DNA of 64,000 nt from Alphaproteobacteria bacterium. Its GTDB lineage: Bacteria; Pseudomonadota; Alphaproteobacteria; CACIAM-22H2. This document shows, piece by piece, positions 33,924-48,864 of this stretch (its first letter is position 1; each line of letters begins with the position of its first letter). The translations under genes and the position numbers were made by a program. The notes below the pieces were generated by a model. That model saw only the letters and a list, made by a program, of their open reading frames with translations, had not been told where the DNA came from and made no database searches. The stretch is from the NCBI GenBank assembly GCA_035506575.1, contig DATJPD010000100.1, positions 59,424 to 123,423 on the forward strand, read 5' to 3'.

Positions 33924-34475
33924 ATGGCGACCCCGAGACCGCGGGCCCGTCCCGACCCAGGCGCCCCATGGAGCGAGGAGCAGATCCGCGAGGGGATCGA
34001 ACTCCTGTTCTTCGCCTATCGTGATTTCACCTCGGACCCGGACCGCATCCTCGCCCCGCTCGGCATGGGCCGCGCGCATCACCGGGTGGTGCATTTCGTC
34101 GGCCGCACCCCGGACATGACGGTGGGCGAGCTCCTGGCCATCCTCAAGATCACCAAGCAAAGCCTCGCCCGCGTGCTGGGGCAGCTGGTCCGCGAGGGGT
34201 ACATCGTCCAGCGCCCGGGTGCGACCGACCGGCGCGAGCGGCGGCTGCATCTGACCCCATCCGGCCAGGCGCTGGAGCGGCGCCTGTCCGAGCCGCAGCG
34301 CCAGCGCGTGGGCGCCGCCTACCGGGCGGCCGGACCCGCCGCCGTCGAGGCCTTCCGCCGCGTGCTGACCGCCCTCAGGACCCCCGAGCCGGCTCCCGGG
34401 ACGCCCGCCAATAAAGCAAACGTGAGGCAAAGCCCGCGCCGCACGCCTGGCGGGCGGCTTTCCGGCAAGTCGTAG
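33924..34475 (+). CDS. MarR family transcriptional regulator
   Basis: wHTH (MTVGELLAILKITKQSLARVLGQLVREGYIVQRP...DRRERRLHLT); 183 aa. Confidence 0.85.
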   Translation: MATPRPRARPDPGAPWSEEQIREGIELLFFAYRDFTSDPDRILAPLGMGRAHHRVVHFVGRTPDMTVGELLAILKITKQSLARVLGQLVREGYIVQRPGATDRRERRLHLTPSGQALERRLSEPQRQRVGAAYRAAGPAAVEAFRRVLTALRTPEPAPGTPANKANVRQSPRRTPGGRLSGKS

Positions 34476-34485
34476 CTGGGCTACC

Positions 34486-35196
34486 TTGCCGGCCATGACA
34501 GGCTCCGACGCCGCCCATATCCTGGTCGTCGACGACGATTCACGGCTGCGGGAGCTGCTGCGCAAATTCCTCAGCGAGCGCGGGTTCCGCGTCACGACGG
34601 CGGCGAATGCCGCCGATGCCGAGGCGAAGCTGGGCTCTCTCGAATTCGACCTGATGATCCTGGACGTGATGATGCCGGGCGAAGACGGCGTTGCGCTGAC
34701 GCGGCGGCTGCGCCAGAGCCGCGTGCTGCCCATCCTCCTGCTGACCGCCCGCGCCGAAGCGCAGGACCGCATCGCGGGCCTCGCCAGCGGCGCCGACGAT
34801 TACCTGCCCAAGCCCTTCGAGCCCGACGAGCTCCTGCTGCGGGTGAAGGCGATCCTGAGACGCGCCCCGCCGCCGTCGGCGGCGCCGGCCGAGATCCGCT
34901 TCGGGCCGTTCCGCTTCGACCTCGGCCGCGAGGAGCTGCTGCAGGCAACCGACGGCAGCGCCGAGCAGCCCGTCCGGCTGACGGCGGCCGAGGCGTCGCT
35001 GCTGAAGGTGCTGGCCGCGAGCCCGGATGCGCCGGTGTCGCGCCAGGAGCTGTTGCAACACTCGCGCATTTCCGGCAATGAGCGCACGGTCGACGTCCAG
35101 GTGACACGGTTGCGGCGTAAGATCGAAGCCGATCCGCGCCTGCCGCGCTACTTGCAGACGGTGCGGGGCGCCGGCTACGTGCTGCGGACAGGCTGA
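34486..35196 (+). CDS. OmpR-family response regulator
   Basis: REC domain (LVVDDD...D...LLTAR) plus C-terminal winged-helix trans_reg_C (RLTAAEASLLKVL...GAGYVL). Confidence 0.9.
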   Translation: MPAMTGSDAAHILVVDDDSRLRELLRKFLSERGFRVTTAANAADAEAKLGSLEFDLMILDVMMPGEDGVALTRRLRQSRVLPILLLTARAEAQDRIAGLASGADDYLPKPFEPDELLLRVKAILRRAPPPSAAPAEIRFGPFRFDLGREELLQATDGSAEQPVRLTAAEASLLKVLAASPDAPVSRQELLQHSRISGNERTVDVQVTRLRRKIEADPRLPRYLQTVRGAGYVLRTG

Positions 35197-35202
35197 GGCT
35201 TC

Positions 35203-36519
35203 ATGGCTTTCTCGCTCAAGAACTACCTGCCGCACTCGCTGTTCGGGCGCGCGATCCTGATCCTGGTGATGCCGCTCATCATCGTCCAGGGGATCGCCGC
35301 CTTCGTCTTCTACGACCGCGTGTGGGACGTGGTGACGCGGCGCCTCACCACGGCGGTCGCGGGCGAGATCGGCATGGTGGTGCAGCTCCTCGGCCGCTAT
35401 CCCGACCCGGCGACGCGCAACTGGATCTTCGAGACCGTCGCCAACGAAAACGAGCTGCGCTTCAACCTTCGGCCCAACGCCATCCTCAGCAACGACGGAC
35501 CGGTACTCGGCAACGGCATCCTCGAGCAGCGCCTGGTGAACGCGATGAACGAGCGCGTGCGCCGGCCCTTCCGCCTCAACGTGTGGGGCGATCCCGCCGA
35601 CGTGCTCATCGACGTGCAGCTGCCCGAGGGCGTGCTCTACGTGCGCACGCCGCGCGGCCGGCTGTTCACCACCACCTCCTACGTGTTCATCCTGTGGATG
35701 GTGGGCTCGTCGCTGATCATGTTCGCGATCGCGTCCGTCTTCATGCGCAACCAGGTACGGCCGATCCAGCAGCTCGCGACCGCGGCCGAGGAGTTCGGCA
35801 AGGGCCGCGACACGCCGGAGTTCAAGCCCTACGGGGCGGCCGAGGTGCGGCGGGCGGCCGCGGCGTTCGTGATCATGCGCGAGCGCATCCGGCGGTTCGT
35901 CGCGCAACGGACCGAAATGCTGGCCGGCGTCAGCCACGATCTCAGGACGCCGCTCACCCGCATGAAGCTCGAGCTCGCGATGCTCGGCGATTCCCCCTCG
36001 GTCGCCGGGCTCAAGACCGACGTTGGCGACATGGAGCGGATGGTCGAAAGCTACCTCGCCTTCGTGCGCGGCGAGGGCGAGGAGCAGACGGAATCGACCG
36101 ACCTTTCCAAGCTGCTCGAGGACATCGCCGCCAACGCGCGGCGCGACGGGAATTCCGTGTCGCTCACGACGGTGGGCGATCTCGTCCTGCCGCTGCGGCC
36201 GCAGGCGATCAAGCGCAGCCTGACCAACCTCGTCGCCAACGCGACGCGGCACGCGGCCCAGGTGTCGATCGCGGCCGAGCGCCACAACCGCGCGGTCGAG
36301 GTGGTGATCGACGATGACGGCCCCGGCATCCCCGAGCAGGCGCGCGAGGAGGTGTTCAAGCCGTTCTACCGGCTCGATCCCTCGCGCAACCCCGACACCG
36401 GCGGCGTCGGCCTGGGCCTCACCATCGCGCGCGACGTGGTGAGCAGCCACGGCGGCAATATCCAGCTCGACTCGTCGCCGATGGGCGGCCTGCGTGCCCG
36501 CATCCGGCTTCCGGTTTGA
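35203..36519 (+). CDS. EnvZ-like sensor histidine kinase (2 TM, HAMP, HisKA, HATPase_c)
   Basis: H-box VSHDLRTPLTRM and N/G1/G2 boxes; 438 aa. Confidence 0.88.
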   Translation: MAFSLKNYLPHSLFGRAILILVMPLIIVQGIAAFVFYDRVWDVVTRRLTTAVAGEIGMVVQLLGRYPDPATRNWIFETVANENELRFNLRPNAILSNDGPVLGNGILEQRLVNAMNERVRRPFRLNVWGDPADVLIDVQLPEGVLYVRTPRGRLFTTTSYVFILWMVGSSLIMFAIASVFMRNQVRPIQQLATAAEEFGKGRDTPEFKPYGAAEVRRAAAAFVIMRERIRRFVAQRTEMLAGVSHDLRTPLTRMKLELAMLGDSPSVAGLKTDVGDMERMVESYLAFVRGEGEEQTESTDLSKLLEDIAANARRDGNSVSLTTVGDLVLPLRPQAIKRSLTNLVANATRHAAQVSIAAERHNRAVEVVIDDDGPGIPEQAREEVFKPFYRLDPSRNPDTGGVGLGLTIARDVVSSHGGNIQLDSSPMGGLRARIRLPV

Positions 36520-36553
36520 TTTCAGGACTCATCCGTCGTATGAAGCGCCCGTC

Positions 36554-37183
36554 ATGACGTCTTCGCTCGATCTCGACGCGCTGGCCGCCACCGAGCTGCG
36601 CCGGCAACCCTACGACTACGTGGTCGTGCCGAATTTCGTCCGCGCTGCGGCGTTCGAGGAGATCGTCGCCGACTATCCCGAGATCGCGCGCACCGGCTCC
36701 TACCCGCCGTCGGAGCTGCGCTACGGCCGGCGCTTCGCCTCGTTCCTGGCCGAGCTCGAAGGCCCCGGGTTCCGCCACGCGATCGAGCGGAAATTCGGCC
36801 TCAGCCTCGACGGCCGGCCGACCATGATCACGGTGCGCGGCCGCACCGGCGGCGGCGACGGCTATATCCACACCGACACGGCGACCAAGATCATCACCGT
36901 GCTCATCTACTTCAACCGCGGCTGGGAGGCCGACGGCGGCCGGCTGCGCATCCTGCGGGGCCCCAGCGATCTCAACGACTACGCCGAGGAGGTGAGCCCG
37001 TACGGCGGCACGCTCCTCGCCTTCCGCCGCTCCGAGACCTCCTGGCATGGCCACGAAAAGTTCGACGGCCAGCGCCGCGCCATCCAGCTCAACTGGGTCA
37101 CCGACATGAACGTCGTCAACCGCGAGCTGGCGCGCCACCGCGTCTCGGCGTTTTTCAAGAAGCTGAACCCCTTCGCGGCCTGA
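36554..37183 (+). CDS. 2OG-Fe(II) oxygenase superfamily protein
   Basis: YDYVVVPNF N-terminal block and HTD…H metal triad pattern; internal ATG of ORF 36494..37183. Confidence 0.6.
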   Translation: MTSSLDLDALAATELRRQPYDYVVVPNFVRAAAFEEIVADYPEIARTGSYPPSELRYGRRFASFLAELEGPGFRHAIERKFGLSLDGRPTMITVRGRTGGGDGYIHTDTATKIITVLIYFNRGWEADGGRLRILRGPSDLNDYAEEVSPYGGTLLAFRRSETSWHGHEKFDGQRRAIQLNWVTDMNVVNRELARHRVSAFFKKLNPFAA

Positions 37184-37538: not shown

Positions 37539-37970
37539 TCAGGCGATGACCGCGCCCGCCGGCGCGGCGTACTGCGCCTTGCCCTGGTATTCCCGCGCGA
37601 GGCTCAAAAGGCCGATGCGGATGTCGCGGTTGGCAGGTCTTCGCGCCAGCCAGGCGATGAGCTGGGCCTGGCTCAGGTAGAACTCGCGATCGAAGGCGAA
37701 CGGACGGACGGATGGCTGCACGTACCGGACCACGCCTTCGCCCCCCTCGTCATCGGGGGGCATGAACTGCAGGCCGGCCTGCTCGAACGCCTCGCGGAAC
37801 TGACGGCGGGTGGAGGCGCGGACCGTGTAGCCGCGTTCGAAGCGCACCACGGTCATCCGAATCGCGCCGGCGTGGCGCGCGAGGTCGCTCTGCGTCCACT
37901 CGAGCAGCGCCCGCGCCGCCCGGCACTGGGCCGCCGAAATCAATCCCGTGCGTGCCATCGCCCGCGTCAT
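37539..37970 (-). CDS. XRE-family HTH transcriptional regulator
   Basis: HTH_XRE: ISAAQCRAARALLEWTQSDLARHAGAIRMTVVRFERG; 143 aa. Confidence 0.7.
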   Translation of the reverse strand: MTRAMARTGLISAAQCRAARALLEWTQSDLARHAGAIRMTVVRFERGYTVRASTRRQFREAFEQAGLQFMPPDDEGGEGVVRYVQPSVRPFAFDREFYLSQAQLIAWLARRPANRDIRIGLLSLAREYQGKAQYAAPAGAVIA

Positions 37971-38051: not shown

Positions 38052-39719
38052 TCAGCCGTCGATGACGCTGCGCAGGCGGCCGGCCAGATCGGCGACCGCG
38101 TAGGGCTTCGGCAGGTAGGCCACGTCCGGCGCGGGGTCGGCGCCGGCGGCGACATCGCCCGCAAACCCTGATGTGACCAGGACCTTCAGGCCGGGACGCA
38201 GCTCACGGGCCAGCCGGACCAGCTCGATCCCGCTGATCCCCTCCGGCATGACCACATCGGTGAACAGCACGTCGATCGCCTCGGGACCGCGCAGGATGGT
38301 CAGGGCGAGCGGGCCGTTCGCGGCGTGGAGAACGCGATACCCAAGCTCACCGATGACCTGGATCGCGGAATCGCGGACCAGGTCGTTGTCCTCGACGACC
38401 AGGATCGTCTCGCTCCCGCCGCTGGCCTCGCCCGCGGTCGCCTGACCTGCGGCGGCAGAGGGAGACTCGTGGGTCCGCGCGAGGTACAGGTGGACGCGCG
38501 TCCCCGTGCCGGGGGCGGTGTCGATCGCGACCGCGCCCTGCGCCTGCTTGACGAAGCCGTAGACCTGGCTGAGGCCGAGACCGCTACCCTTGCCGACATC
38601 CTTCGTGGTGAAGAACGGCTCGACGGCCCGCGCGACGATCTCGGGGGCCATGCCCGCCCCCGTATCCGCAACCGTGATGCACACGTACTGCCCCGGTTCC
38701 AGACCGGCCGGGTGCTGCACGCCCGCCGCGGCGGCCGAACCGATGTCGGCGTTGGATGTCCTGATCTCGATCGTGCCTCCCTCGGGCATCGCATCGCGCG
38801 CGTTGACCACCAGGTTGAGGACCGCGGCTTCGAGCTGGCCGGCATCGAGCCAACACGGCCACACGCCGGCGCCGAGCCGGAGCTGCAGTGCCGCGCGCTC
38901 TCCGGCGGCACGACGCAGCAGCGGCTCGAAGCGGTCTATCGCCGCGTTCACCTCCACGGCTTCGAACCGCAGGGGATCGCGGCGCCCGAACGCCAGCATC
39001 TGGTTCGTGAGGTGGCTGCATTCCTGCGTCGCGTTCAGCGCCAGGGTCACGGCCTTCAACAGCTTGTCGCGGCTGCCCGCATCCCATTTGAGGATGCCCC
39101 GCTCCAGTCGTTCGACGGCGCCGACGATGACCGTCAGCAGATTGTTGAAGTCGTGGGCGATGCCGCCGGTGAGGCGCCCCAGCGCGTCGAGCTTCTGGGC
39201 GTGACGCAGCGCCTCCTCGGTCTCGGCGCGCTGGCGCATTTCCTCGACCAGACGTTGGCCCACGTCCGCGATCTCTTGCGTCCGTTCGGCCACCCTCTGC
39301 TCCAGAATCTCGTTCTGCCGGCGCAGATCGAGCTCGGCACGCCGAAGCCGGAACATGGCACGTACGGTGGCGACGAGCTCCTCCGGCTCCATCGGCTCGA
39401 CAAGATACGAATCGGCACCGCCCTCCAGCGCCACGGCGCGATCGTCGGGGCCGGTGAACGCCGCCGATGTCTGCAGCACGAGCACGCTCGGATCGTCCGC
39501 CTTGAGCTGCCGGCAGACTTCGATGCCGCCGATGTCGGGCAGCTTCACATCCAGCAGCACGAGGCCTGGCGTGTCCGCCCGTACGCTGTCAAGCGCTTGG
39601 CCGCCGCGCTCCGCCTCGGCCACCTGGTAGCCGGCGCGCTCGAGCACCCGGCGCTTGAAGTAACGCTGGCCATCGTCGTCGTCGACGACCAGGACGGTTT
39701 CGCGACCGGTGGTGTTCAT
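38052..39719 (-). CDS. Hybrid sensor histidine kinase/response regulator (REC-HisKA-HATPase_c-REC)
   Basis: N-terminal REC (VLVVDDDDGQ), H-box GGIAHDFNNLL, ATPase G-boxes, C-terminal REC (ILVVEDNDLV). Start overlaps the upstream stop by 4 nt. Confidence 0.88.
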   Translation of the reverse strand: MNTTGRETVLVVDDDDGQRYFKRRVLERAGYQVAEAERGGQALDSVRADTPGLVLLDVKLPDIGGIEVCRQLKADDPSVLVLQTSAAFTGPDDRAVALEGGADSYLVEPMEPEELVATVRAMFRLRRAELDLRRQNEILEQRVAERTQEIADVGQRLVEEMRQRAETEEALRHAQKLDALGRLTGGIAHDFNNLLTVIVGAVERLERGILKWDAGSRDKLLKAVTLALNATQECSHLTNQMLAFGRRDPLRFEAVEVNAAIDRFEPLLRRAAGERAALQLRLGAGVWPCWLDAGQLEAAVLNLVVNARDAMPEGGTIEIRTSNADIGSAAAAGVQHPAGLEPGQYVCITVADTGAGMAPEIVARAVEPFFTTKDVGKGSGLGLSQVYGFVKQAQGAVAIDTAPGTGTRVHLYLARTHESPSAAAGQATAGEASGGSETILVVEDNDLVRDSAIQVIGELGYRVLHAANGPLALTILRGPEAIDVLFTDVVMPEGISGIELVRLARELRPGLKVLVTSGFAGDVAAGADPAPDVAYLPKPYAVADLAGRLRSVIDG

Positions 39720-41845
39720 GGCGCCGGCGGCGGGTGCGGCTGCAGCGCCTCGCGGATGGCCCCTACCAGCCGGTCCGCCGTCAGGTCGAACTTCGACAAG
39801 ATGCCGGATGCGTGCGCGACCCGTTCCTTCTGCGCCTCGTCGAGTACCAGCGAGGTCAGGATGATGGCCGGCGGCGCTCCCGCCCCTTCCCCGTTGTGCA
39901 GGCGGTCGAGGAACTCGAAGCCGTCGACCATGTCCATGTTCAGGTCGAGGAGGATGACGTCGGGTGGGTCCGCCTTCGCCTGCTCGAGCCCGTCGATCGC
40001 GTTGGCGGCCTCGCGAAGCTCGTAGGCGCCGCGCGGCAGCAGCTGGCGGACCACGTAGCGCGAGACCTCCTCGTCGTCGACCAGCAGCACCTTGGTCATG
40101 CCACGGGCGCCGGTCATCTCATCGAGCCACCGCACGAGGCCCGCCGGGTCGACTGGCTTGACCATGAATTCGTCGGCGCCGAAGCTGCGCGCCTTCTGCT
40201 CATCGGCGGTACTCGAGACGAGGACCGCCGGAACGTCCTGCGTCCGCTCATCGTGCTTCGCGTCGATCAAGAAGCGCCAGCATTCCTCGCCCTGGAGCAC
40301 GATATCGAGGACGAAGGCGGCCGGCGTGATCCGCTCCAACGCGCGTTTTGCCTCGGCGACGCTGCGGACGGAAATCGGCTGATAACGCGAGTACGCCAGC
40401 GAGCGCTCGAGGCTGAACGCGTCGGCGGGATCGTCTTCGAGGATCAGCACCGGCAACCGGCCCGGCTCGACCGTCCACGAGCCCTCGTCCGGCGCGCCGG
40501 CCAGCTCGCAGTAACGGCGCGGAATCCTGACCCAGAACAGCGAGCCCTGGCCCACGACGCTCTCGACCCCGGCCTCGCCGCCCAAAAGCTCGGCGAGGCG
40601 CTTGGACAGCGGCAGGCCGAGCCCCGTGCCCTTCACCCGTCCCTGGAGCCGGTTCGCGACCTGCGTGAATTCCTGCCAGATCCGGTCGAGGTCGGCCGCG
40701 GCGATCCCGACGCCCGTGTCGCGGACGTTCCAGGTCACCGTGTCGGTCTCGCGGTCGTAGACTGCCCACACGCGGACCTCGCCGCGCTCGGTGAACTTGA
40801 TCGCGTTGGAGATGAAGTTGCGCAGGATCTGCGAGACCTTGCCCTCGTCGGTGAAGAGGGTCGGGATATCGTCGGGGTCGTCGAACACGAGGTTGAGGGC
40901 GTTGCCGACCAGGAGCGGACGCAGCATGCCGCGCAAGGTGCTGAACAGCTCGCCGGCCTCGAATTCCTTCGACGTCACGACGACCTTGCCCGCCTCGACG
41001 CGCGCGATGTCGAGGAGGTTGTCGACCAGCTCCGCCAGGCTCTCCGCCGCCTTGCGCACGAACAGCACCTGCTTTTCCTGCTCGGGCGTCAGCTCCCCGT
41101 CGGTGCGGCCGAGCAGGAGACGGGACAGCGACAGGATCGAGTTCAACGGCGTGCGGAACTCGTGGCTCATGTTCGAGAGAAACCGCGACTTGAGCTGGTC
41201 GGCGCGGCGCAGATGGTCGGCGCGCTCCTCGAGCTCGGCGTAGAGGGCCACGACCCCGCGGTTCGTGTCCTGCAGCTCGTCGTTCAGCTGCGCGAGCTCC
41301 TGCTGACGCGCCTGAAGCTCCTGCAGCTGCAGCATCATCTCGCGGTTCTGGTTGCGGATCTCGGCCACGGGGTCGCCGCTCTCCGCCGTCGCCAGCGCCT
41401 GCATGATCGGCTTCAGCTGGTCCTTGTAGATCGCGGGCGCCCGCTTCGGCAGGCATTTCACCATTCGCACCGTCGTGCCCTGGCCGCGGTGGCTCTGCAG
41501 CTCGAACTCGTCCATCAGCCGCCGGGCGCCAAGGATTCCGACGCCCATGCCGGTCGTCGAGCGGTGGCGCCCGGACAGGACCGCTTCCGGGTCGGCCATG
41601 CCCGGGCCGGAATCCTGGACCACGATTTCGAGGCACTGCGGATCCCGGCCCGTGATCTTGTATTCGATGCGGCCGCCGCCGCCGTAATCGAGCGCGTTGC
41701 GCACGATCTCCGACACGGCGGTCGTGATACGCGTCTGATCCTGCGCATCGAACCCCAGAAGTGCCGCGATCTGGCGCGTGCGCTGGCGGGCGGCGATGAT
41801 GTCCGTCTCGCGCTCGATGGCCACGGTGAGGAGCCGTGCGTCCAC
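39716..41845 (-). CDS. RsbT-like GHKL domain::HisKA::HATPase_c::REC::REC hybrid kinase
   Basis: N-terminal 130 aa align with B. subtilis RsbT (DIIAARQ..TRITTAVSEIVRNAL..GQGTTVRMVKCL). Then H-box SHEFRTPLNS, ATPase and two receivers. Confidence 0.85.
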   Translation of the reverse strand: MDARLLTVAIERETDIIAARQRTRQIAALLGFDAQDQTRITTAVSEIVRNALDYGGGGRIEYKITGRDPQCLEIVVQDSGPGMADPEAVLSGRHRSTTGMGVGILGARRLMDEFELQSHRGQGTTVRMVKCLPKRAPAIYKDQLKPIMQALATAESGDPVAEIRNQNREMMLQLQELQARQQELAQLNDELQDTNRGVVALYAELEERADHLRRADQLKSRFLSNMSHEFRTPLNSILSLSRLLLGRTDGELTPEQEKQVLFVRKAAESLAELVDNLLDIARVEAGKVVVTSKEFEAGELFSTLRGMLRPLLVGNALNLVFDDPDDIPTLFTDEGKVSQILRNFISNAIKFTERGEVRVWAVYDRETDTVTWNVRDTGVGIAAADLDRIWQEFTQVANRLQGRVKGTGLGLPLSKRLAELLGGEAGVESVVGQGSLFWVRIPRRYCELAGAPDEGSWTVEPGRLPVLILEDDPADAFSLERSLAYSRYQPISVRSVAEAKRALERITPAAFVLDIVLQGEECWRFLIDAKHDERTQDVPAVLVSSTADEQKARSFGADEFMVKPVDPAGLVRWLDEMTGARGMTKVLLVDDEEVSRYVVRQLLPRGAYELREAANAIDGLEQAKADPPDVILLDLNMDMVDGFEFLDRLHNGEGAGAPPAIILTSLVLDEAQKERVAHASGILSKFDLTADRLVGAIREALQPHPPPAP

Positions 41846-41848
41846 CGG

Positions 41849-42835
41849 TCAGACCCTCAGGGCTACGACGGTCGCGTCGTCGTTCTTGCGCCGGAAGTCG
41901 CGGAATAGGATTCCGGCGATCAGGCTGGGATGGCTCGCCGCGAGGCCCGGGTAGGCCGTGAAATCCCACTTCGCGGACAGCCCGTCCGAGTGCATGATGA
42001 CGACGGATCCGTCCGCCCAGGGGTAGCTGAACTCGCGGATGCGCAGGGCCACGTGTCCCACCGTGCCGTTGTGCGACACCATCCGCCGGACGCTGCCGGC
42101 GGGCGCCACGATCGCGCCCGCGATATTGCCCACGCCCGCGAACCGGACCACCCGCGCCTCCCCATTCACGCGGGCAATGGCGATGGCGGCCCCTCGCGTC
42201 GGGGCGAGCTCCCGGTGCATCCGGGCCAGGATCTCCGTGCAGTCCTCGTCGGCGCAATTCTCGAACGTCCGCAGCGCCGCCTGGGTGGCCGCGCCTGCCG
42301 CCGGACCATGACCGGAGCCGTCGGCGACCATCAGGGTCGCGCCTTTGGTCGACCTCGCGAACGCCCAGCCGTCGCCGCTGACGCGCTCTCCATGCAACGG
42401 CATGGCGATCGCGCCGAGAACGGGAGTGCCGTCGATCTTGGAATGACGGCCATTGCCGATGCGCGCGGCGATCGCGGTGCCGAGGTTGGGGCGAGTGAAC
42501 ACGTTGAGCTGATCAGCCTGGCGGCGGATCGCGCCGAGGCCATTGCCCGGGCTGCCGGCGGTCGACACCCCGTCTTCGAACGCGCGCCCGAGATCGGCGA
42601 TCCCTTCGCCCTTGTCCAGAGCGAGGAGCTCGATACCGCTGCCCGAGGCGTCGGCGTAGGTGCCGATGACGATCTCGCCGCGCGAAGCATGCTTGATGAG
42701 ATTGGTGGCAAGCTCGGTTGCGACCAGGGCGACCCGGCCGGTGCTCTTCTCGTCGAACCCGCGCGCCTCTGCCGCGTCCGCGGCGGCGCGGCGCGCCACC
42801 GAAACCTGGCTGGAATCCGCGACCTCGATGAGCAT
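41849..42835 (-). CDS. RsbT/RsbW-like ATPase domain fused to PP2C (SpoIIE-type) phosphatase
   Basis: N-terminal VATELATNLIKHA...NGLGAIRRQADQLN (HATPase_c_2-like). C-terminal PP2C with metal-binding Asp motifs MVADGSGHG and IMHSDGL. Confidence 0.8.
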   Translation of the reverse strand: MLIEVADSSQVSVARRAAADAAEARGFDEKSTGRVALVATELATNLIKHASRGEIVIGTYADASGSGIELLALDKGEGIADLGRAFEDGVSTAGSPGNGLGAIRRQADQLNVFTRPNLGTAIAARIGNGRHSKIDGTPVLGAIAMPLHGERVSGDGWAFARSTKGATLMVADGSGHGPAAGAATQAALRTFENCADEDCTEILARMHRELAPTRGAAIAIARVNGEARVVRFAGVGNIAGAIVAPAGSVRRMVSHNGTVGHVALRIREFSYPWADGSVVIMHSDGLSAKWDFTAYPGLAASHPSLIAGILFRDFRRKNDDATVVALRV

Positions 42836-42847
42836 GCCGGCGCCGCC

Positions 42848-43270
42848 TCACTTCCAGCGGATCAGGGTGACGGTGGTGCCTTCGCCGGGGGTCGACTTGA
42901 TGTCGAACTCGTTGGACAGGCGCTTGGAGCCGCTGAGGCCGAGGCCCAGGCCGCCTCTGGTGGTGTAGCCGTCCGTCATGGCCCGCGCGATATCGGGGAT
43001 TCCGGGCCCCTTGTCGGTAAAGACCAGCCTGAGCCCCACGCGCCCGCCCTGCCGTACGGTATCCATGTCCATCCTGCCGCCGCCGCCATGCAAGATCGTG
43101 TTGCGGCCGATCTCGCTCGCAGCCGTGACGATCTTCGTCTGATCGACGAGGCTGAACCCAAGGGCCACGGCTTGCGCCCGAACCTTCTGCCGGACCTTGA
43201 CCACGTCCTCGGACGTACTGACCGATATTGTGTCACTCGCCTCGACGATCAAGCGACCCCTCCTCGCCAT
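42848..43270 (-). CDS. rsbT: RsbT-type serine kinase (stressosome partner)
   Basis: Aligns along its length with B. subtilis RsbT (TAASEIGRNTILHGGGG...GPGI...GGLGLGLSGSKRL...PGEGTTVTL). Start uncertain (ATG 43270 overlaps rsbS; alternative TTG 43252). Confidence 0.85.
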   Translation of the reverse strand: MARRGRLIVEASDTISVSTSEDVVKVRQKVRAQAVALGFSLVDQTKIVTAASEIGRNTILHGGGGRMDMDTVRQGGRVGLRLVFTDKGPGIPDIARAMTDGYTTRGGLGLGLSGSKRLSNEFDIKSTPGEGTTVTLIRWK

Positions 43271-43622
43271 CGATCATCTGGCGAATCAGGGCGAGCCCCT
43301 TGTCGACGTTGAGCGCGGTCTTCACGCCGGTCAGGGACAGGCCGAGCTCGACCAGGGTGATGGCGACCGCCGGCCGCATGCCGACGACCACCGTGACCGC
43401 GTCGAGAATGCGCGACATCGCCGCGATGTTGTTCAACATGCGGCCGATGAAGGAGTCGACGATCTCAAGAGAGGAGATGTCGATCATCACGCCGCGGGCG
43501 CGGGTCTCCACGATCTTCGCTGTCAGGTCGTCCTGCAGCGCCAACGCCAGCCGGTCGTGCATGTCGACCTGGATGCTGACCAGGAGCGTGTCGCCGATCT
43601 TCAGGATCGGGATCTGGTCCAT
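43233..43622 (-). CDS. rsbS: RsbS-type STAS-domain protein (stressosome scaffold)
   Basis: IPILKIGDTLLVSIQ...VMIDISSLEIVDSFIG...AITLVELG, including the DSF phosphorylatable-Ser context; 129 aa. Confidence 0.88.
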   Translation of the reverse strand: MDQIPILKIGDTLLVSIQVDMHDRLALALQDDLTAKIVETRARGVMIDISSLEIVDSFIGRMLNNIAAMSRILDAVTVVVGMRPAVAITLVELGLSLTGVKTALNVDKGLALIRQMIDGEEGSLDRRGE

Positions 43623-43628
43623 GGCGGT

Positions 43629-44519
43629 TTAAGCCTCTTCCGCCGCTGCCGCGTCCTGCGGCTTTTTCTTTTCGCCGTTCGACTGCTCGCGGTCCCTGAC
43701 CGTCTTGCCGATCCGCCGCAAGGCCAGCGCGAAGGCATCCGCCATCGTGGCCTTGGTCATGACGTTGAGCTCGACGCCGAGATGCACGATGGTTTGCGCG
43801 ATCTGCGGCCTGATACCGCTGATGATGCAGTCGGCCCCCATCAGACGCGCAGCGGACACGGTCTTCAGCAGGTGCTGCGCCACGAGCGTGTCGACTGTCG
43901 GCACGCCGGTGATGTCGATGATCGCGGTCTCGGCGCCCGAGGTGACGATCTGCTGCAAAAGGCTCTCCATCACGACCTGGGTGCGGGCGCTGTCCAAGGT
44001 GCCGATCAGCGGCAGGGCCAGGATGCCGTCCCACAGCTTCACCACGGGGGTCGACAGCTCCAGCATCTCCTCCTGCTGGCGCGCGATCACCTCTTCGCGG
44101 TTCTTCTGGAACACCTCGGTCGTGTAGAGGCCGAGCTTGTCGAGCAGCAGGGTTGCCGTCCAAATCTCGCGCGCAAGCGTCGGCGCGTCCTTGATTTCGC
44201 GCCCGAGCAGGGAGAACAGCGGAGATTTCAGCGAGAACACGAACGTCGCGGTCTGCGCCGGCGTGGCGCCCTTGATCGCACGCTCGCGCGAGAGCTCTTC
44301 GAGGATTCCGCGCGCCGGGGCCCAGGCTGGGCCGCTGATGTCATCGAACTGCCCCGAGGCGATGCCTTGCCGCAGTGCCGTGAAGAACCGCGCGCCGACT
44401 TCGTTGAGATCGTCGCCGACCGCAATCGTGACCGCCGATATCTGCGCAGCCCAGTCCTTCATCACCTGGGTGCTGTATTTGTCCAGGATCTGCGGGATGA
44501 TGCTGTCGGTCTTGGTCAT
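43629..44519 (-). CDS. rsbR: RsbR-type stressosome sensor (N-terminal non-haem-globin-like domain + C-terminal STAS)
   Basis: C-terminal STAS aligns with RsbRA (IIDITGVPTVDTLVAQHLL...GADCIISGIRPQIAQT), conserving both phosphorylatable Thr positions; 296 aa. Confidence 0.85.
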   Translation of the reverse strand: MTKTDSIIPQILDKYSTQVMKDWAAQISAVTIAVGDDLNEVGARFFTALRQGIASGQFDDISGPAWAPARGILEELSRERAIKGATPAQTATFVFSLKSPLFSLLGREIKDAPTLAREIWTATLLLDKLGLYTTEVFQKNREEVIARQQEEMLELSTPVVKLWDGILALPLIGTLDSARTQVVMESLLQQIVTSGAETAIIDITGVPTVDTLVAQHLLKTVSAARLMGADCIISGIRPQIAQTIVHLGVELNVMTKATMADAFALALRRIGKTVRDREQSNGEKKKPQDAAAAEEA

Positions 44520-44754
44520 CTTTTTCCCTCATTTTCTTTTCCAAGCGCGAGCGGCCCGCCACGCGGGTCACTCTCGCATGGACGGTCACGGAGATTGCGT
44601 CAGGTAGATGACGCCCAAAGCGGTCTTTTTGAGTTATTCCGAGCTGCCGGCCGCGCGATCGGTTGTTTCGCGTACACGCCTGGATTATTTAACCAACACG
44701 ATATCGAAAACACGAATCGTTTTACTGATCCAGGCAGGACTTGGGGAGCGTGCC

Positions 44755-45129
44755 ATGGCGAACAACGGGCCGACATCTGAGAAAGGACGGATCCTGCTCG
44801 TCGATGACGAGGACGGGTTCCGCTACACGGCCGAGAAGGCGCTGCGCGAGGCCGGCTATGACGTGAGGATCGCCGGCGATTATCAGAAGGCGCTCGACAT
44901 CCTCGCCGGGCCCGAGCGTCTCGACCTGATGCTGACCGACATCGTGATGCCCAAGGGCATCAACGGCTTTGCCCTGGCGCGCATGGCACGCATGCGCCGG
45001 CTCGACCTGAAGTTGCTCTACGTCACGTCGTACGACGTGCCCGCAAACGAAGCGGTCGCCAAGATCCTGCGCAAGCCGATCACCGAGACCGAGCTGGTGC
45101 ACGAGGTCGAGCAGGCGCTGGCGGCTTAG
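44755..45129 (+). CDS. Single-domain response regulator (receiver only)
   Basis: 124 aa with ILLVDDEDG...DLMLTDIVMP; divergent from rsbR. Internal ATG of ORF 44608..45129. Confidence 0.75.
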   Translation: MANNGPTSEKGRILLVDDEDGFRYTAEKALREAGYDVRIAGDYQKALDILAGPERLDLMLTDIVMPKGINGFALARMARMRRLDLKLLYVTSYDVPANEAVAKILRKPITETELVHEVEQALAA

Positions 45130-45170: not shown

Positions 45171-47291
45171 TCAGGCCGATGCTTCGGCCGGCGCCGTCAC
45201 TGCACCGATATCGCTGCGCCGCAGCCGCTGTCGCGGCAAATGCACCGTCATCCGGGTGCCGACATCCGGCGTACTGACGATCTCGAGTCTTCCCCCGTGC
45301 AGCTCGACCAGACGCTTGGCCAGCGGCAGTCCCAGCCCGGTGCCCTGCTGGCCGCGGCTGAAGGTGAGATTCGCCTGCCCGAACGGTTGCACCGCGGTTT
45401 CGATTTGCCCCGGGGTCATGCCGATTCCGGTGTCATGAACCACAAGCGCCAGCTCGCCGGATTCCTCGACGCCTGCGCTCAGCGACACCCGCCCGCCCGC
45501 TGGCGTGAACTTGATGGCATTCGACAGGAGATTGGTCAGGATCTGGCGTATCCGCAGGGGATCCGCCCACAGGTCCGGAAGGCTGACCGGAACGTCGATG
45601 CTCAGGAACAGATTTTTCTTGCCGGCCTCGCCGCGCAGGATGTTTACGGTTGAGGCGACCAGATCAGCCACGATGCACGACTGCTCGCGGAGTTGAAGCT
45701 TGGCCGCATCGAGCTTCGACAAATCGAGAATGTCGTTCACGATCTCCAGCAGATGGCGGCCCGCGCCGTTGATGTCGGCGGCATACTCGCGATAGCGCGC
45801 GGTGCCGACAGGCCCCAGGACCTCGCCGCGGATGATCTCGGAAAACCCGATCACGGCATTGAGCGGCGTCCGCAGCTCGTGACTCATGTTCGCAAGGAAC
45901 GCCGATTTTGCCTGGCTCCCGGCCTCGGCGGCGGCCTTCGCCCGCTCCAAGGCGGCCTCGATCTGCTTGCGCGCGGTGATGTCGCGCGAGTTGATCACGA
46001 TGCCCCCGACACCCGGGACGTCGAACGCATTGCGGGCCGTCCACCCGATGTCGCGCCACGTGCCGTCCACGTGCCGTACCCGCGCGCACCCGCTCGCACG
46101 GCGCCCCGGCCCGGCGGCAACGCCGCGCAGCGCATCGGCGAGCCCGGCCTTGTCCTCGGGATGTATGCGCTCCGACAACGGACGCCCGACGACCTCCTCC
46201 GGAGGAACTCCGAGCACCTCGATAGAAGAAGGACTGCGATAGGTCACCATGCCCTGCGGGTCGACGACGGTGATCATGTCGTTGGACTGCTCGATGAGCG
46301 CGCGGAACCGGCGCTCGCTGGTCTTGACGGCCGCCTCCGCCGCCTCGCGCCGGGCCTCCTGCCCCACCAGATAGGCGGCGAAAGCGGCGATGATGGCGGC
46401 GCAGGCGAGAAAGATCGCGCCTAGAACGCGGAGATCGCGCTTCCACGGGGCGAGCACGTCATCGACGGCGCGCGAGACGTAGACGACCAAGCCGAGGCTT
46501 GGGATCGCCCGATAGGAGACGATGCGATCGATCCCATCGATGATCGTGCTGGTCCGGTACGTTCCGACGGGGGTCTGCGGCAGGTAATGCGTCAGAAGCG
46601 GACCTTTCGCCAGCGACGCTCCGATGGCACCGCCCTTTGGCTGCCGCATGAGGATCGGCCCGTCGATTCGAACGACGCCGACCACCGCATTCTCGCCGAC
46701 CTGAAGCGATCGGAAGAAGTCGTGGAATGTGTTCAACGGGAGCGTCGCCACTATGACGCCGGCAAAGCTGCCGTCCGCCGCCACGAGACGCCGGCTCGCC
46801 GGGATGAGCCACTCGCCGGATGCCCGGCCGACGATCGGCATGCCGATGAAAAGACCTGCTTGCGAGTTTTTCCGATGCGCGTCGAAATAATCGCGATCGC
46901 TTAGATCGACCCCTACCGGTCCGGTCGCGAAGGTGGAATAGGTCATCCGGCCGGTCGGATCGATCAATCCCAGACTTCTCACGTGATACGTGTCGATGGC
47001 CCGCGACGAAATCTCGCCACCGTCCGGCCCCGTGCCGCCAGCGCGCGGCGCCTCGGCCAGGCGCTCCCCCGTGGTCACGAGCGCATGGTCGACCGCGTCG
47101 AATACGGAACGCGTATGCTCGTCGAGCGCAAGCGCGAGCCGCGCGTTCAGATCGCTGCCGTTCGTCAGATAAGCCCGGTATTCGATCAGCAGATGCGCAC
47201 CGAAGCCCAGGGCGAGAGCGAAAATCGCGAGCGCTGCGAACGCGATCAAACCGGGGCGGCTGCGGATGGTGGCGGACGTCATGTGACCCAT
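45171..47291 (-). CDS. Sensor histidine kinase with periplasmic Cache-like domain, PAS, HisKA, HATPase_c
   Basis: TM, ~270-aa periplasmic domain, second TM, PAS (ITVVDPQGMVTYRSP), H-box SHELRTPLNAV, G-boxes. Start is MGHM 47291 (or 47282). Confidence 0.85.
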   Translation of the reverse strand: MGHMTSATIRSRPGLIAFAALAIFALALGFGAHLLIEYRAYLTNGSDLNARLALALDEHTRSVFDAVDHALVTTGERLAEAPRAGGTGPDGGEISSRAIDTYHVRSLGLIDPTGRMTYSTFATGPVGVDLSDRDYFDAHRKNSQAGLFIGMPIVGRASGEWLIPASRRLVAADGSFAGVIVATLPLNTFHDFFRSLQVGENAVVGVVRIDGPILMRQPKGGAIGASLAKGPLLTHYLPQTPVGTYRTSTIIDGIDRIVSYRAIPSLGLVVYVSRAVDDVLAPWKRDLRVLGAIFLACAAIIAAFAAYLVGQEARREAAEAAVKTSERRFRALIEQSNDMITVVDPQGMVTYRSPSSIEVLGVPPEEVVGRPLSERIHPEDKAGLADALRGVAAGPGRRASGCARVRHVDGTWRDIGWTARNAFDVPGVGGIVINSRDITARKQIEAALERAKAAAEAGSQAKSAFLANMSHELRTPLNAVIGFSEIIRGEVLGPVGTARYREYAADINGAGRHLLEIVNDILDLSKLDAAKLQLREQSCIVADLVASTVNILRGEAGKKNLFLSIDVPVSLPDLWADPLRIRQILTNLLSNAIKFTPAGGRVSLSAGVEESGELALVVHDTGIGMTPGQIETAVQPFGQANLTFSRGQQGTGLGLPLAKRLVELHGGRLEIVSTPDVGTRMTVHLPRQRLRRSDIGAVTAPAEASA

Positions 47292-47592
47292 CAATTCGCG
47301 TCCCCGAGATCGGATCAAAAAGCGCCTGTGCCGCAGTGGAACCCACGAGAGCCCGCAGACGGCGCGCCGCGCCGATGGGGCGCGGCGGCATCGCACGGAC
47401 CTCTGCGTGACAGGACGCTCGTTGGCGACTCTGCGGACGAGTAAGCCGCAGTCTTCGTGGTGTCGCCGATCCGTCCACTAACGGGACGTGAGCCAAACGC
47501 CGCTTATGCAGCAGACTCTAAATATATGGAGTGGTTGTTAATAGAACGTTGACAAAGGCTTAACGGCGCGATGCGGGCCCTGTGCGTGGAGA

Positions 47593-48864
47593 TCACGTAC
47601 TGCCGAGCGGCATCAGCAGCTCGCGCTTCAACTCGCCCAGCGCGTTGATGCCCAGCAGCGCCATGTCGCGGTTGATCTCCTGCGACAGGATGCCCGCGGC
47701 GTGCTCGACGCCGGCCTGCCCGGCGATCGAAGCCGCGAACAGGAACGGCCGGCCGACGAACACGAAGCGGGCGCCGAGCGCCAGCGCCTTCAGCACGTCG
47801 GTGCCGCGGCGCACGCCGCTGTCGAACATCACGGTCATGGGCCCGGCCAAATCGGCGATCTCCGGCAGGACGCGCAAGGGGGATACCGTGCCGTCGAGCT
47901 GCCGGCCGCCGTGGTTGGAGACGAGCACGCCGTCCACTCCGCTGTCGCGCGCGATGCGTGCGTCCTCCTTGTTCATCACCCCTTTGAGCGCCAGCTTTCC
48001 CTGCCAGCGCTTGCGGATCAGCTCGAGATGGCGCCAGTTCAGGTGGTCGCGCATGCCGAAATCGCGCGCCACGGCGCGCGACAGGATCGGCGCGCCGCGG
48101 GTCGCGTAGGAGTTCTCGAAATACGGCATGCCGTGCCGCACCAGCGTGCGGAACCACGTATTGATCAGCCAGTCTGGACGGATGAGGCCGTCCCAGGCCA
48201 GGCGCAGGCTGGGCTTGAGTGGCGTGGTGAAGCCGTTGCGGATGTTGTTCTCGCGGTTGGCCGACACCGGCACGTCGATGGTCACGACCAGGGTCTTGAA
48301 TCCGGCCGCGGCCACCCGGTCCACGAGGCCCAGGATGCGCGCATCCTCGCCCGGCAGATAGGCCTGGAACCAGGAGTCCGGATTTTCGCGGATCACGTCC
48401 TCGAGCCGGATCAGCGACGATCCGCTGAGGATGAACGGGATGTTGCAGCGCGCGGCGGCCCGCGCAAGAACGAGGTCTGCACGATATGCCGCGATCGCAG
48501 CGATGCCCATCGGCGGGATGCCGAACGGTGCCGCGTAACGCTGGCCGAACAACTCGGTCGCCTGGCCGCGCTTGGACGTATCGACGAGGCCGCGCGGCAC
48601 GAAGCCGTAGTCCTGGAAGGCCGCGCGGTTGTCGCGCCACGTTGCGTTCGTCTCCGCCGCCCCGGCGACGAAGCCGAAGATCGGCCGCGGGAGATGCCGC
48701 CTGGCGGCGACCTCGAAATCGTCGAGCGACAGGATGCGCCGGAGCTTGCGCGGGCCGGCGCTGGGCAGGCCCTGCAGCATGGCTCCGCCCGTGACAGGCG
48801 CCACGGCCGGGGCGACCGGAGCGTCGGGCACGGCCCTGGCGGTCGAGCTCATCTCATTGGGCAT
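47593..48864 (-). CDS. FMN-dependent alpha-hydroxy acid dehydrogenase (L-lactate dehydrogenase/LldD family)
   Basis: TIM-barrel FMN motifs (LSNHGGRQLDG, GRPFLF); 423 aa with a GAGAGGAA RBS. Confidence 0.8.
   Translation of the reverse strand: MPNEMSSTARAVPDAPVAPAVAPVTGGAMLQGLPSAGPRKLRRILSLDDFEVAARRHLPRPIFGFVAGAAETNATWRDNRAAFQDYGFVPRGLVDTSKRGQATELFGQRYAAPFGIPPMGIAAIAAYRADLVLARAAARCNIPFILSGSSLIRLEDVIRENPDSWFQAYLPGEDARILGLVDRVAAAGFKTLVVTIDVPVSANRENNIRNGFTTPLKPSLRLAWDGLIRPDWLINTWFRTLVRHGMPYFENSYATRGAPILSRAVARDFGMRDHLNWRHLELIRKRWQGKLALKGVMNKEDARIARDSGVDGVLVSNHGGRQLDGTVSPLRVLPEIADLAGPMTVMFDSGVRRGTDVLKALALGARFVFVGRPFLFAASIAGQAGVEHAAGILSQEINRDMALLGINALGELKRELLMPLGST

Follow-up and report, generated by a model that had tools for sequence, protein, structure and literature searches.

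A stressosome-type cassette with three RsbT-family domains that very likely controls a two-tier histidine-kinase cascade

Introduction

Only those stressosomes that act on σB by way of RsbU are well understood, and pairings of stressosome genes with two-component genes have reportedly been noted in surveys since 2005. Here we describe a locus of an alphaproteobacterium (Alphaproteobacteria bacterium, lineage CACIAM-22H2) in which an RsbR-RsbS-RsbT module is followed by a phosphatase and two hybrid histidine kinases. It occupies positions 38052-45129 of a 64,000-nucleotide stretch of DNA (GenBank assembly GCA_035506575.1, contig DATJPD010000100.1, positions 59,424 to 123,423, forward strand), which as a whole is referred to as the window. 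Our analyses make it very likely that the locus is a complete stressosome-type cassette whose target is a two-tier cascade of histidine kinases and not a sigma factor.

In B. subtilis, a salt bridge is predicted between the lid aspartate D92 of RsbT and R91 of the RsbU linker, and RsbU with the charge-swapped residue R91E is no longer activated by RsbT (PMC12143880). Other stressosome operons encode a histidine kinase or a GGDEF protein that bears an RsbU_N domain, as found for MtG of Moorella and for NreB-like kinases of proteobacteria (PMC12143880, PMC9237108). RSTX modules with two-component outputs are known as well, and the route from RsbT to a kinase without RsbU_N is unsolved; in V. vulnificus, no interaction of VvRsbT with VvD1 was detected (PMC9237108).

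The locus in the window shares with the stressosomes of B. subtilis and Listeria an RsbR made of a non-haem N-domain and a STAS domain, an RsbS with the DSF serine, a GHKL-type RsbT and an RsbX-type PP2C phosphatase. It differs from them in the lack of RsbU_N, RsbV, RsbW and a sigma factor, and in the serine found at the first RsbR acceptor position. Furthermore, RsbX follows directly after RsbT and carries an extra RsbT-like domain, and the output is a histidine kinase with yet another one. With the RSTX module and VvD1/VvD2 of V. vulnificus, the locus has in common the RSTX gene order, the lack of a sigma factor, two-component genes immediately downstream (PMC9237108, PMC10014275) and the serine at the first RsbR acceptor. 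In contrast, Vibrio RsbR is a haem-containing globin-coupled sensor, whereas RsbR here bears an RsbRD_N domain. RsbX is a single-domain protein in Vibrio-type clusters (PMC9237108) and is fused to a GHKL domain here. The Vibrio output is linked to cyclic di-GMP, whereas our Pfam scan of the cassette found no GGDEF, EAL or HD-GYP domain.

As in the RsbU_N-bearing effectors, control by a stressosome would enter a dimeric effector at its N-terminal input domain and run along a helical linker; the input domain, however, is here an RsbT paralogue with GHKL fold and not the RsbU_N four-helix bundle. A GHKL kinase and a PP2C phosphatase joined in one polypeptide that acts on STAS proteins are also known from Rv1364c of M. 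tuberculosis, OsaC of Streptomyces and mycobacterial RsbUW (PMC8115616). Domain order and context differ, since here a small RsbT-clade domain stands N-terminal to a minimal RsbX-type PP2C, and always right after rsbT. Full-text literature searches, which did not cover the stressosome surveys of 2005 and 2017, returned no description of RsbT paralogues fused to RsbX and to a kinase, nor a test of such a cassette.

Gene organization of the cassette

The cassette is composed of six co-directional open reading frames (ORFs) on the minus strand and a divergent receiver gene, placed by the ORF list at the coordinates given below. Genes are numbered along the operon, gene 1 being rsbR, gene 4 the phosphatase fusion, gene 5 the first kinase and gene 6 the second kinase. 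The encoded order is RsbR, RsbS, RsbT, an RsbT-like domain with PP2C, an RsbT-like domain with HisKA-HATPase-REC-REC, and REC-HisKA-HATPase-REC. Pfam domain calls were counted only above the family gathering scores.

44755-45129 (longest ORF 44608-45129), plus strand: divergent single-domain receiver, 124 amino acids, CpdR-like (Pfam REC 50.8 bits)
44520-44754, no strand assigned: 235-bp intergenic stretch separating the divergent rsbR and receiver genes, presumed promoter region (read from the sequence)
43629-44519, minus strand: RsbR, RsbRD_N and STAS (Pfam RsbRD_N 71.5 bits, STAS 54.1 bits)
43233-43622, minus strand: RsbS, single STAS domain (Pfam STAS 30.5 bits)
42848-43252 (longest ORF to 43270), minus strand: free RsbT serine kinase (Pfam HATPase_c 43.7 bits, HATPase_c_2 34.9 bits)
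41849-42835, minus strand: fusion of an RsbT-like GHKL domain with an RsbX-type PP2C (Pfam HATPase_c_2 48.4 bits, SpoIIE 51.3 bits)
39716-41845, minus strand: first-tier hybrid kinase, RsbT-like GHKL, HisKA, HATPase_c and two REC domains (Pfam)
38052-39719, minus strand: second-tier kinase, REC-HisKA-HATPase_c-REC (Pfam)
37539-37970, minus strand: ORF for an XRE/C-protein-like helix-turn-helix protein, 143 amino acids, 3' of the operon

An earlier, sequence-only reading of this DNA had proposed an RsbR-RsbS-RsbT module, two fusions of RsbT-like domains, one with a PP2C phosphatase and one with a kinase core and two receivers, and a lone receiver divergent from rsbR. The Pfam calls bear out all of these. 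The N-terminal domains of both fusion proteins score as RsbT-like, the region 43233-44519 carries STAS domains, and the receiver lies upstream of rsbR on the plus strand. Sequence matches to stressosome chains in the PDB, described below, further support the RsbRST module.

The genes are tightly packed. rsbT overlaps rsbS by 20 nt, gene 5 begins with a GTG 3 nt past the stop codon of gene 4, and the 4 bp ATGA are shared by the end of gene 5 and the start of gene 6. The second kinase is thus translationally coupled to the first, in agreement with the sequence-only reading. For rsbT, the most likely start is the TTG at 43252 (134 amino acids), which is preceded by GGAGG and used in the gene call of every relative, and not the ATG at 43270. 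The operon starts at the divergent promoter region and ends inside the window. A promoter scan of the 235-bp divergent region gave no match to the sigma-70 consensus, and in a terminator scan, terminator-like matches were no more frequent than expected by chance. The lowest GC content of the window (0.637) falls into the 2-kb bin around the intergenic region between rsbR and the receiver gene. Across the locus the GC content is even, and we hence see no sign of recent acquisition.

In the operon we found none of the components of σB partner switching, that is RsbU_N, RsbV, RsbW and a group-3 sigma factor. In the cassette proteins, Pfam reported no RsbU_N, RsbV, RsbW or σB, and none turned up elsewhere in the window. 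Hidden Markov model (HMM) and BLAST scans of all window ORFs revealed no SigB-, RsbV- or ECF-like protein, BLAST being of limited sensitivity for sigma factors, and no further STAS, RsbT-like or PP2C protein. The missing RsbU-RsbV-RsbW-σB genes had already been pointed out from the sequence. A sigma factor elsewhere in the window was considered as well and rejected by the same scans.

Conservation and distribution

A genome scan with one genome per species found at least 576 with relatives of the phosphatase fusion. For a locus survey we took the best 80 of these at least 576 loci and mapped the window domains onto their ORFs; 72 loci had enough flanking sequence. The order RsbR, RsbS, RsbT, RsbT-like-PP2C, RsbT-like-kinase was complete in 71 of the 72, and the sole exception resembles a split gene. 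The loci span Alpha- and Gammaproteobacteria, Acidobacteriota, Chloroflexota and Deinococcus, with sources such as Acetobacteraceae, Stellaceae, Methylobacterium, Methylocystis, Microvirga, Rhodoplanes, Gammaproteobacteria, Acidobacteriota, 'delta' proteobacteria, Dehalococcoidia and a Heliomicrobium metagenome-assembled genome, among others. Gene-neighbourhood conservation, which the earlier reading had suggested checking in Alphaproteobacteria, thus extends well beyond this class.

One could argue that the kinase genes merely happen to lie next to the RsbRST genes and are not functionally coupled to them. Nothing specific speaks for this, apart from the abundance of two-component genes in the window. 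A five-gene order kept in nearly all surveyed loci of several phyla effectively refutes mere adjacency; moreover, junctions are overlapping or only 3 nt apart, and an RsbT paralogue is the first kinase's only input domain. We regard this explanation as exceedingly improbable.

Several counts illustrate the size of the family. Homologues of the phosphatase fusion with equal architecture and length number more than 4251, and the closest genomes are metagenome-assembled genomes of Alphaproteobacteria (84-91% identity for this protein). A search with residues 1-215 of the first kinase against 1.84 billion representatives gave 428 clusters (50% identity) at E<=1e-30, the lengths of which fit an RsbT-like domain plus kinase core with no, one or two receivers. 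An exact-sequence look-up found the identical RsbS in soil metagenome contigs, and no match for the first kinase. As the RsbT triplication was found across the surveyed loci and in model strains, it is the norm of a large family and not a local oddity. The sequence-only reading had called this wiring unusual, which in the sense of rarity does not hold. The locus in the window is an ordinary, intact member of a widespread cassette, not a one-off, and in itself it would not surprise a specialist.

Other parts of the cassette are more variable. In 61 of 68 loci, the next gene after the first kinase encodes a REC-led kinase, the family of which varies between HisKA, HWE/HisKA_2 with PAS, HisKA_3 and GAF-HisKA. 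The divergent single receiver is present in 32/72 loci. Free RsbT, on the other hand, occurs in every complete locus.

Among model strains, D. radiodurans R1 carries the cassette on megaplasmid MP1 (DR_RS15570-15595; the kinases have the old tags DR_B0028 and DR_B0029). It encodes RsbRD_N-STAS, STAS, RsbT, GHKL-PP2C, GHKL-HisKA-HATPase-REC and REC-HisKA-HATPase, with the same motif in the kinase linker as in the window (see below), and differs by its identity of about 38% and by one REC domain fewer per kinase. Co-regulation of DR_B0028/DR_B0029 with an operon for 'antisigma factor-regulation' is mentioned in PMC6501615, with reference to Makarova 2001; our searches found no mechanistic study of the D. 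radiodurans cassette. In P. inhibens DSM 17395 it resides on pPGA1_262, and there a HisKA_2/HWE-type kinase (386 amino acids; locus L095, 8297-9457) bears the fused RsbT-like domain. A further copy is located on a plasmid of Sphingomonas aliaeris.

Plasmid p1 of Streptomyces fungicidicus (locus L096, 439507-452445) encodes STAS, RsbR, RsbS, RsbT and GHKL-PP2C proteins, followed by a GAF-PP2C output. This actinobacterial version thus has the same reset phosphatase fusion and a different output class. Genes for another large phosphatase of the SpoIIE type and for a HAMP protein lie upstream of it.

The stressosome subunits

The two STAS proteins, RsbT after rsbS and an RsbX-type PP2C give the locus the full set of stressosome components. 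RsbR consists of an RsbRD_N sensor domain (residues 8-105) and a STAS domain (residues 160-262). Its N-domain belongs to RsbRD_N (PF14361), and the Pfam scan reported no globin or protoglobin family. In PDB sequence searches, the STAS region matched V. vulnificus RsbR (7o0i, E 7e-32) and Listeria RsbR (about E 2e-29). The phospho-acceptor positions are S177 (LDSAR) and T211 (VDTLV), which align with T175 and T209 of Listeria; among 80 RsbR orthologues, the first is Ser in 80 and the second Thr in 80. Hence, of the two conserved threonines that the sequence-only reading had assigned to RsbR, the second stands and the first is a serine.

RsbS matched Listeria RsbS (6qcm, E 1e-32), B. subtilis RsbS (6jhk, E 4e-30) and Moorella MtS (E 2e-25) in the PDB search. 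Its acceptor S57 lies in the VDSF motif read earlier from the sequence and is invariant in 81/81 orthologues. It aligns with the DSF serine of B. subtilis RsbS (S59).

RsbR and RsbS match the subunits of solved stressosomes as closely as those subunits match each other, and their STAS surfaces are extremely conserved across phyla. From the likeness to those subunits we infer that RsbR and RsbS may together build a pseudo-icosahedral particle of about 1.5-1.8 MDa in which RsbT is sequestered.

Three RsbT-family domains

Pairwise comparison with free RsbT gave 36.5% identity over the full length for the kinase-fused domain (E 2e-29) and 31% for the phosphatase-fused domain (E 1e-14). The two fused domains share only 20% identity with each other. 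For each of the three domains, we built family alignments and HMMs from 81-86 orthologues, and each family is monophyletic in a neighbour-joining tree. Against unverified B. subtilis sequences, the HMMs of the free, phosphatase-fused and kinase-fused domains scored 144, 97 and 129 bits with RsbT; none, 15 and 28 bits with RsbW; and 31, 25 and 50 bits with SpoIIAB. As the scores with RsbT far exceed those with RsbW and SpoIIAB, we assign all three domains to the RsbT clade, with the free protein as the orthologue. An RsbW-like nature of the phosphatase-fused domain, left open by the earlier reading, was rejected on the basis of these scores (15 versus 97 bits).

The ATP-binding site is preserved in all three families. 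N-box Glu/Asn, G1 DxGxG and G2 GxGxG are kept in at least 79/81 and up to 86/86 sequences, and in free RsbT they are invariant across 85 sequences. SpoIIAB contacts its STAS partner SpoIIAA with R20, and the arginine aligned with this residue is invariant in 85/85 free, 86/86 phosphatase-fused and 81/81 kinase-fused domains. On helices 1 and 2, the residues D16, R25, Q38, T43 and R50 (free-RsbT numbering) are common to the kinase-fused domain, free RsbT and the unverified B. subtilis RsbT sequence. The phosphatase-fused domain does not share these RsbT-specific residues. The lid aspartate is kept in 99% of free RsbT (D94) and in 98% of the phosphatase-fused domains, and is replaced by Gly in 98% of the kinase-fused ones.

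In the phosphatase fusion, the RsbT-like GHKL domain comprises residues 1-125 and the RsbX-type PP2C domain residues 140-328. The only PDB sequence matches of the latter were Moorella MtX (3zt9, E 6e-14) and B. subtilis RsbX (3w40, E 1e-12). An AlphaFold2 model of the protein (predicted local distance difference test, pLDDT, 90.5; predicted template modelling score 0.90) superposes best on MtX (TM 0.89) and RsbX (TM 0.81) in Foldseek. M. tuberculosis Rv1364c (3ke6), a serine kinase-PP2C fusion, was also among the fold matches. Both the metal-binding Asp residues of PP2C and the ATP-binding motifs of the GHKL domain are invariant among orthologues.

These data also allow for a simple partner switch without a large complex. 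RsbR and RsbS would then be soluble antagonists, and the three GHKL domains would act as serine kinases independently of one another, each on its own substrate, such as one acceptor site apiece or the receivers and kinases themselves. The fusions would work as a futile-cycle timer and not as docking modules. Three kinase-competent domains indeed face three invariant acceptors (S57, S177 and T211), and serine kinase-PP2C fusions such as Rv1364c exist elsewhere. On the other hand, subunits as close to those of solved stressosomes as these are among themselves, and STAS surfaces so conserved across phyla, are what we would expect of an assembling scaffold. We therefore consider a switch without a scaffold improbable.

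First-tier kinase and coupling to the scaffold

The first kinase contains an RsbT-like domain (residues 1-135; Pfam HATPase_c_2 68.9 bits, residues 15-130), a linker (141-222), HisKA (219-286), HATPase_c (333-443) and two REC domains (about 465-577 and 586-696). The phospho-acceptor His228 is invariant in the HisKA domain of its homologues, and the RsbT paralogue is its sole input domain. In an AlphaFold2 model of residues 1-300 (pLDDT 85.9), the GHKL fold (2-131) is followed by a short helix (141-153) and one continuous predicted helix (159-245) that runs into DHp helix 1, which bears His228. Because this helix joins the domain to DHp, the fused RsbT-like domain takes the position of a sensor domain.

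The linker itself is conspicuously conserved. In the stretch encoded by 41180-41425, E162, Q166, N167 and the segment E190-L205 (ELxDTNRGVVALYAEL) are invariant among 60 homologues, and no Pfam family matched the motif. A variant, TN(R/Q)GV(V/L)AL(Y/H)AEL, recurs in the kinases of D. radiodurans and Sphingomonas, and the motif is also found in the Streptomyces GAF-PP2C protein (L096, 6963-8681) at the equivalent operon position. The P. inhibens version of the kinase is without the TNRGVVALYAEL motif. By its conservation pattern, the linker motif may be a binding site.

Very likely, RsbR and RsbS form the STAS scaffold, with free RsbT as the switch kinase that phosphorylates S57 of RsbS and S177/T211 of RsbR, and with the RsbX-type PP2C to reset it. 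For the coupling of scaffold and kinase, we tentatively propose direct docking, to which we would give somewhat less than an even chance. The RsbT-family domain would have been triplicated so as to equip every scaffold partner with a docking module. In the first kinase, the RsbT-like domain might bind the unphosphorylated STAS scaffold as RsbT does and thereby keep the kinase in one signalling state, until signal-dependent phosphorylation of the scaffold sets the domain free. Release could be passed down the long conserved helix into DHp and switch autophosphorylation at His228. In the phosphatase, the RsbT-like domain would target PP2C to the same scaffold, and this post-translational reset would replace the σB-driven rsbX feedback of Bacillus. 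Our preference for docking rests on the kinase-fused domain, which has retained both its ATP site and the partner-binding helices specific to RsbT.

Several observations weigh against direct docking. With Gly in place of the lid Asp, the kinase activity of the kinase-fused domain may differ from that of RsbT. Nor does docking account for the constant presence of free RsbT, unless none of the other domains is an efficient kinase. In the Streptomyces GAF-PP2C protein, the N-terminal domain is degenerate and has lost its ATP-binding motifs, and yet the linker motif is kept. Neither an HPt domain nor a DNA-binding output was found for the cascade, and the comparison with B. subtilis draws on unverified sequences. 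Finally, exposed residues of the linker are very strongly conserved, as would be no less expected of a site that binds a protein than of a helix that passively relays a signal, and this favours an alternative with a different role of free RsbT.

According to this alternative, the scaffold sequesters free RsbT only, and released RsbT binds to the RsbT-like domain and linker of the first kinase as a paralogue heterodimer. The fused domain would then take the place of RsbU_N, and RsbT would order the coiled coil and switch the kinase on as with RsbU. Released RsbT would also bind and activate the phosphatase via its RsbT-like domain, resulting in a negative feedback loop. RsbT capture would explain why free RsbT is obligatory and why the lid Asp is retained in free RsbT and not in the kinase-fused domain. 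Likewise, the linker motif with E162, Q166 and N167 looks like a conserved binding site that recurs in D. radiodurans, Sphingomonas and Streptomyces proteins. An action of RsbT on a linker is, moreover, the published mechanism for RsbU (PMC12143880). In contrast, ATP motifs, helix 1/2 residues and the R20-equivalent Arg, all kept by the kinase-fused domain, would be needless for a mere docking platform, and the P. inhibens version does without the motif. We also know of no heterodimer of GHKL serine kinases. Taken together, we judge RsbT capture a serious alternative, only a little less probable than direct docking.

Second-tier kinase and receivers

In NCBIfam, the second kinase scores 406 bits with PRK13557 and 361 bits with CckA, both scores being under the cutoffs of these families. 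Both cassette kinases contain HisKA, HATPase_c and REC domains, and the acceptor Asp residues of their receivers are conserved. In the first receiver of the second kinase (39363-39695), the position of CheY K109 is occupied by Glu (YLVEP). This position is E, Q or D in 51/51 orthologues, which keep the acidic pocket, Asp57 and Ser85; all other receivers of the cassette have the conserved Lys.

Pfam found no Hpt family in any cassette protein, as would be needed for a His-Asp-His-Asp relay, and we hence assume direct transfer from kinase to receiver. In continuation of the docking mechanism, the first kinase would hand its phosphate to the receiver at the N-terminus of the second kinase. From there, it could reach the C-terminal receiver of the second kinase, the divergent receiver, or both, the divergent receiver acting by protein-protein contact.

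The divergent receiver most likely starts at ATG 44755 (124 amino acids), and gene callers give 122-124 amino acids for its relatives. It scores 67 bits with NCBIfam CpdR, under the cutoff of this family, and its acceptor Asp, Ser/Thr and Lys are conserved in 42 orthologues. We regard it as a candidate for the last phosphate acceptor in the cascade.

Neighbouring genes

The XRE-like ORF (37539-37970) resembles controller (C) proteins of restriction-modification systems (PDB 4yba, E 4e-6; Pfam HTH_3 under threshold). Of the relatives, just the closest two (L001 and L003) have it, and since its conservation ends there, it probably lies outside the system; we rejected it as an output regulator for the same reason. 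Nor is it the only DNA-binding protein nearby, as the sequence-only reading had held, since a MarR protein (33924-34475) and an OmpR-type regulator (34486-35196) are encoded 3-4 kb away. The downstream region 33924-37183 as a whole encodes MarR, the OmpR-type response regulator, a HAMP histidine kinase and a 2-oxoglutarate/Fe(II)-dependent (2OG-Fe(II)) oxygenase, and is syntenic in L001 and L003.

Upstream, the minus strand carries two dCache-type sensor histidine kinases (45171-47396 and 48943-50715), separated by an FMN-dependent dehydrogenase (47593-48864). One of the kinases has a PAS domain, and the other an H-box like that of the second-tier kinase (GGxAHDFNNLL). The first of them (45171-47396) adjoins the cassette only in the closest relatives. 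In the close relative L003 (85% identity), an ECF (extracytoplasmic function) sigma factor and a Cupin_7 (ChrR-like) protein are inserted upstream of the cassette (L003, 4991-6198), between the FMN dehydrogenase and a sensor kinase; both are absent from the window.

Implications

The cassette offers a testable answer to how RsbT signals may travel without RsbU_N, in that the output kinase and the reset phosphatase each bear an RsbT paralogue. D. radiodurans R1 and P. inhibens DSM 17395 are genetically tractable carriers in which this can be addressed.

With still more reserve than for direct docking itself, we suggest that the RsbT-family GHKL domain might be a portable stressosome-docking module, the fusion of which puts an effector directly under control of the STAS scaffold. 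Effectors of this kind would include HisKA kinases, HisKA_2 kinases of the PhyR-kinase type, PP2C and GAF-PP2C phosphatases. In Alphaproteobacteria, PhyR kinases are usually of the HWE/HisKA_2 type. A REC-PAS-HWE_HK protein forms the second tier of the cassette in Methylocystis and Microvirga. Because some cassettes contain such HWE/HisKA_2 kinases, a link to the PhyR general stress response is conceivable, and in Alphaproteobacteria a docking-module cassette might feed into it.

Should the fused domains dock to the scaffold, effector enzymes would be attached directly to the stressosome, which would then serve as a general platform and not only as a store of RsbT. If the docking module proves true, this would be an undescribed direct coupling of Ser/Thr partner switching to His-Asp phosphorelays, and it would explain the signalling of stressosomes without σB in hundreds of soil and aquatic species.

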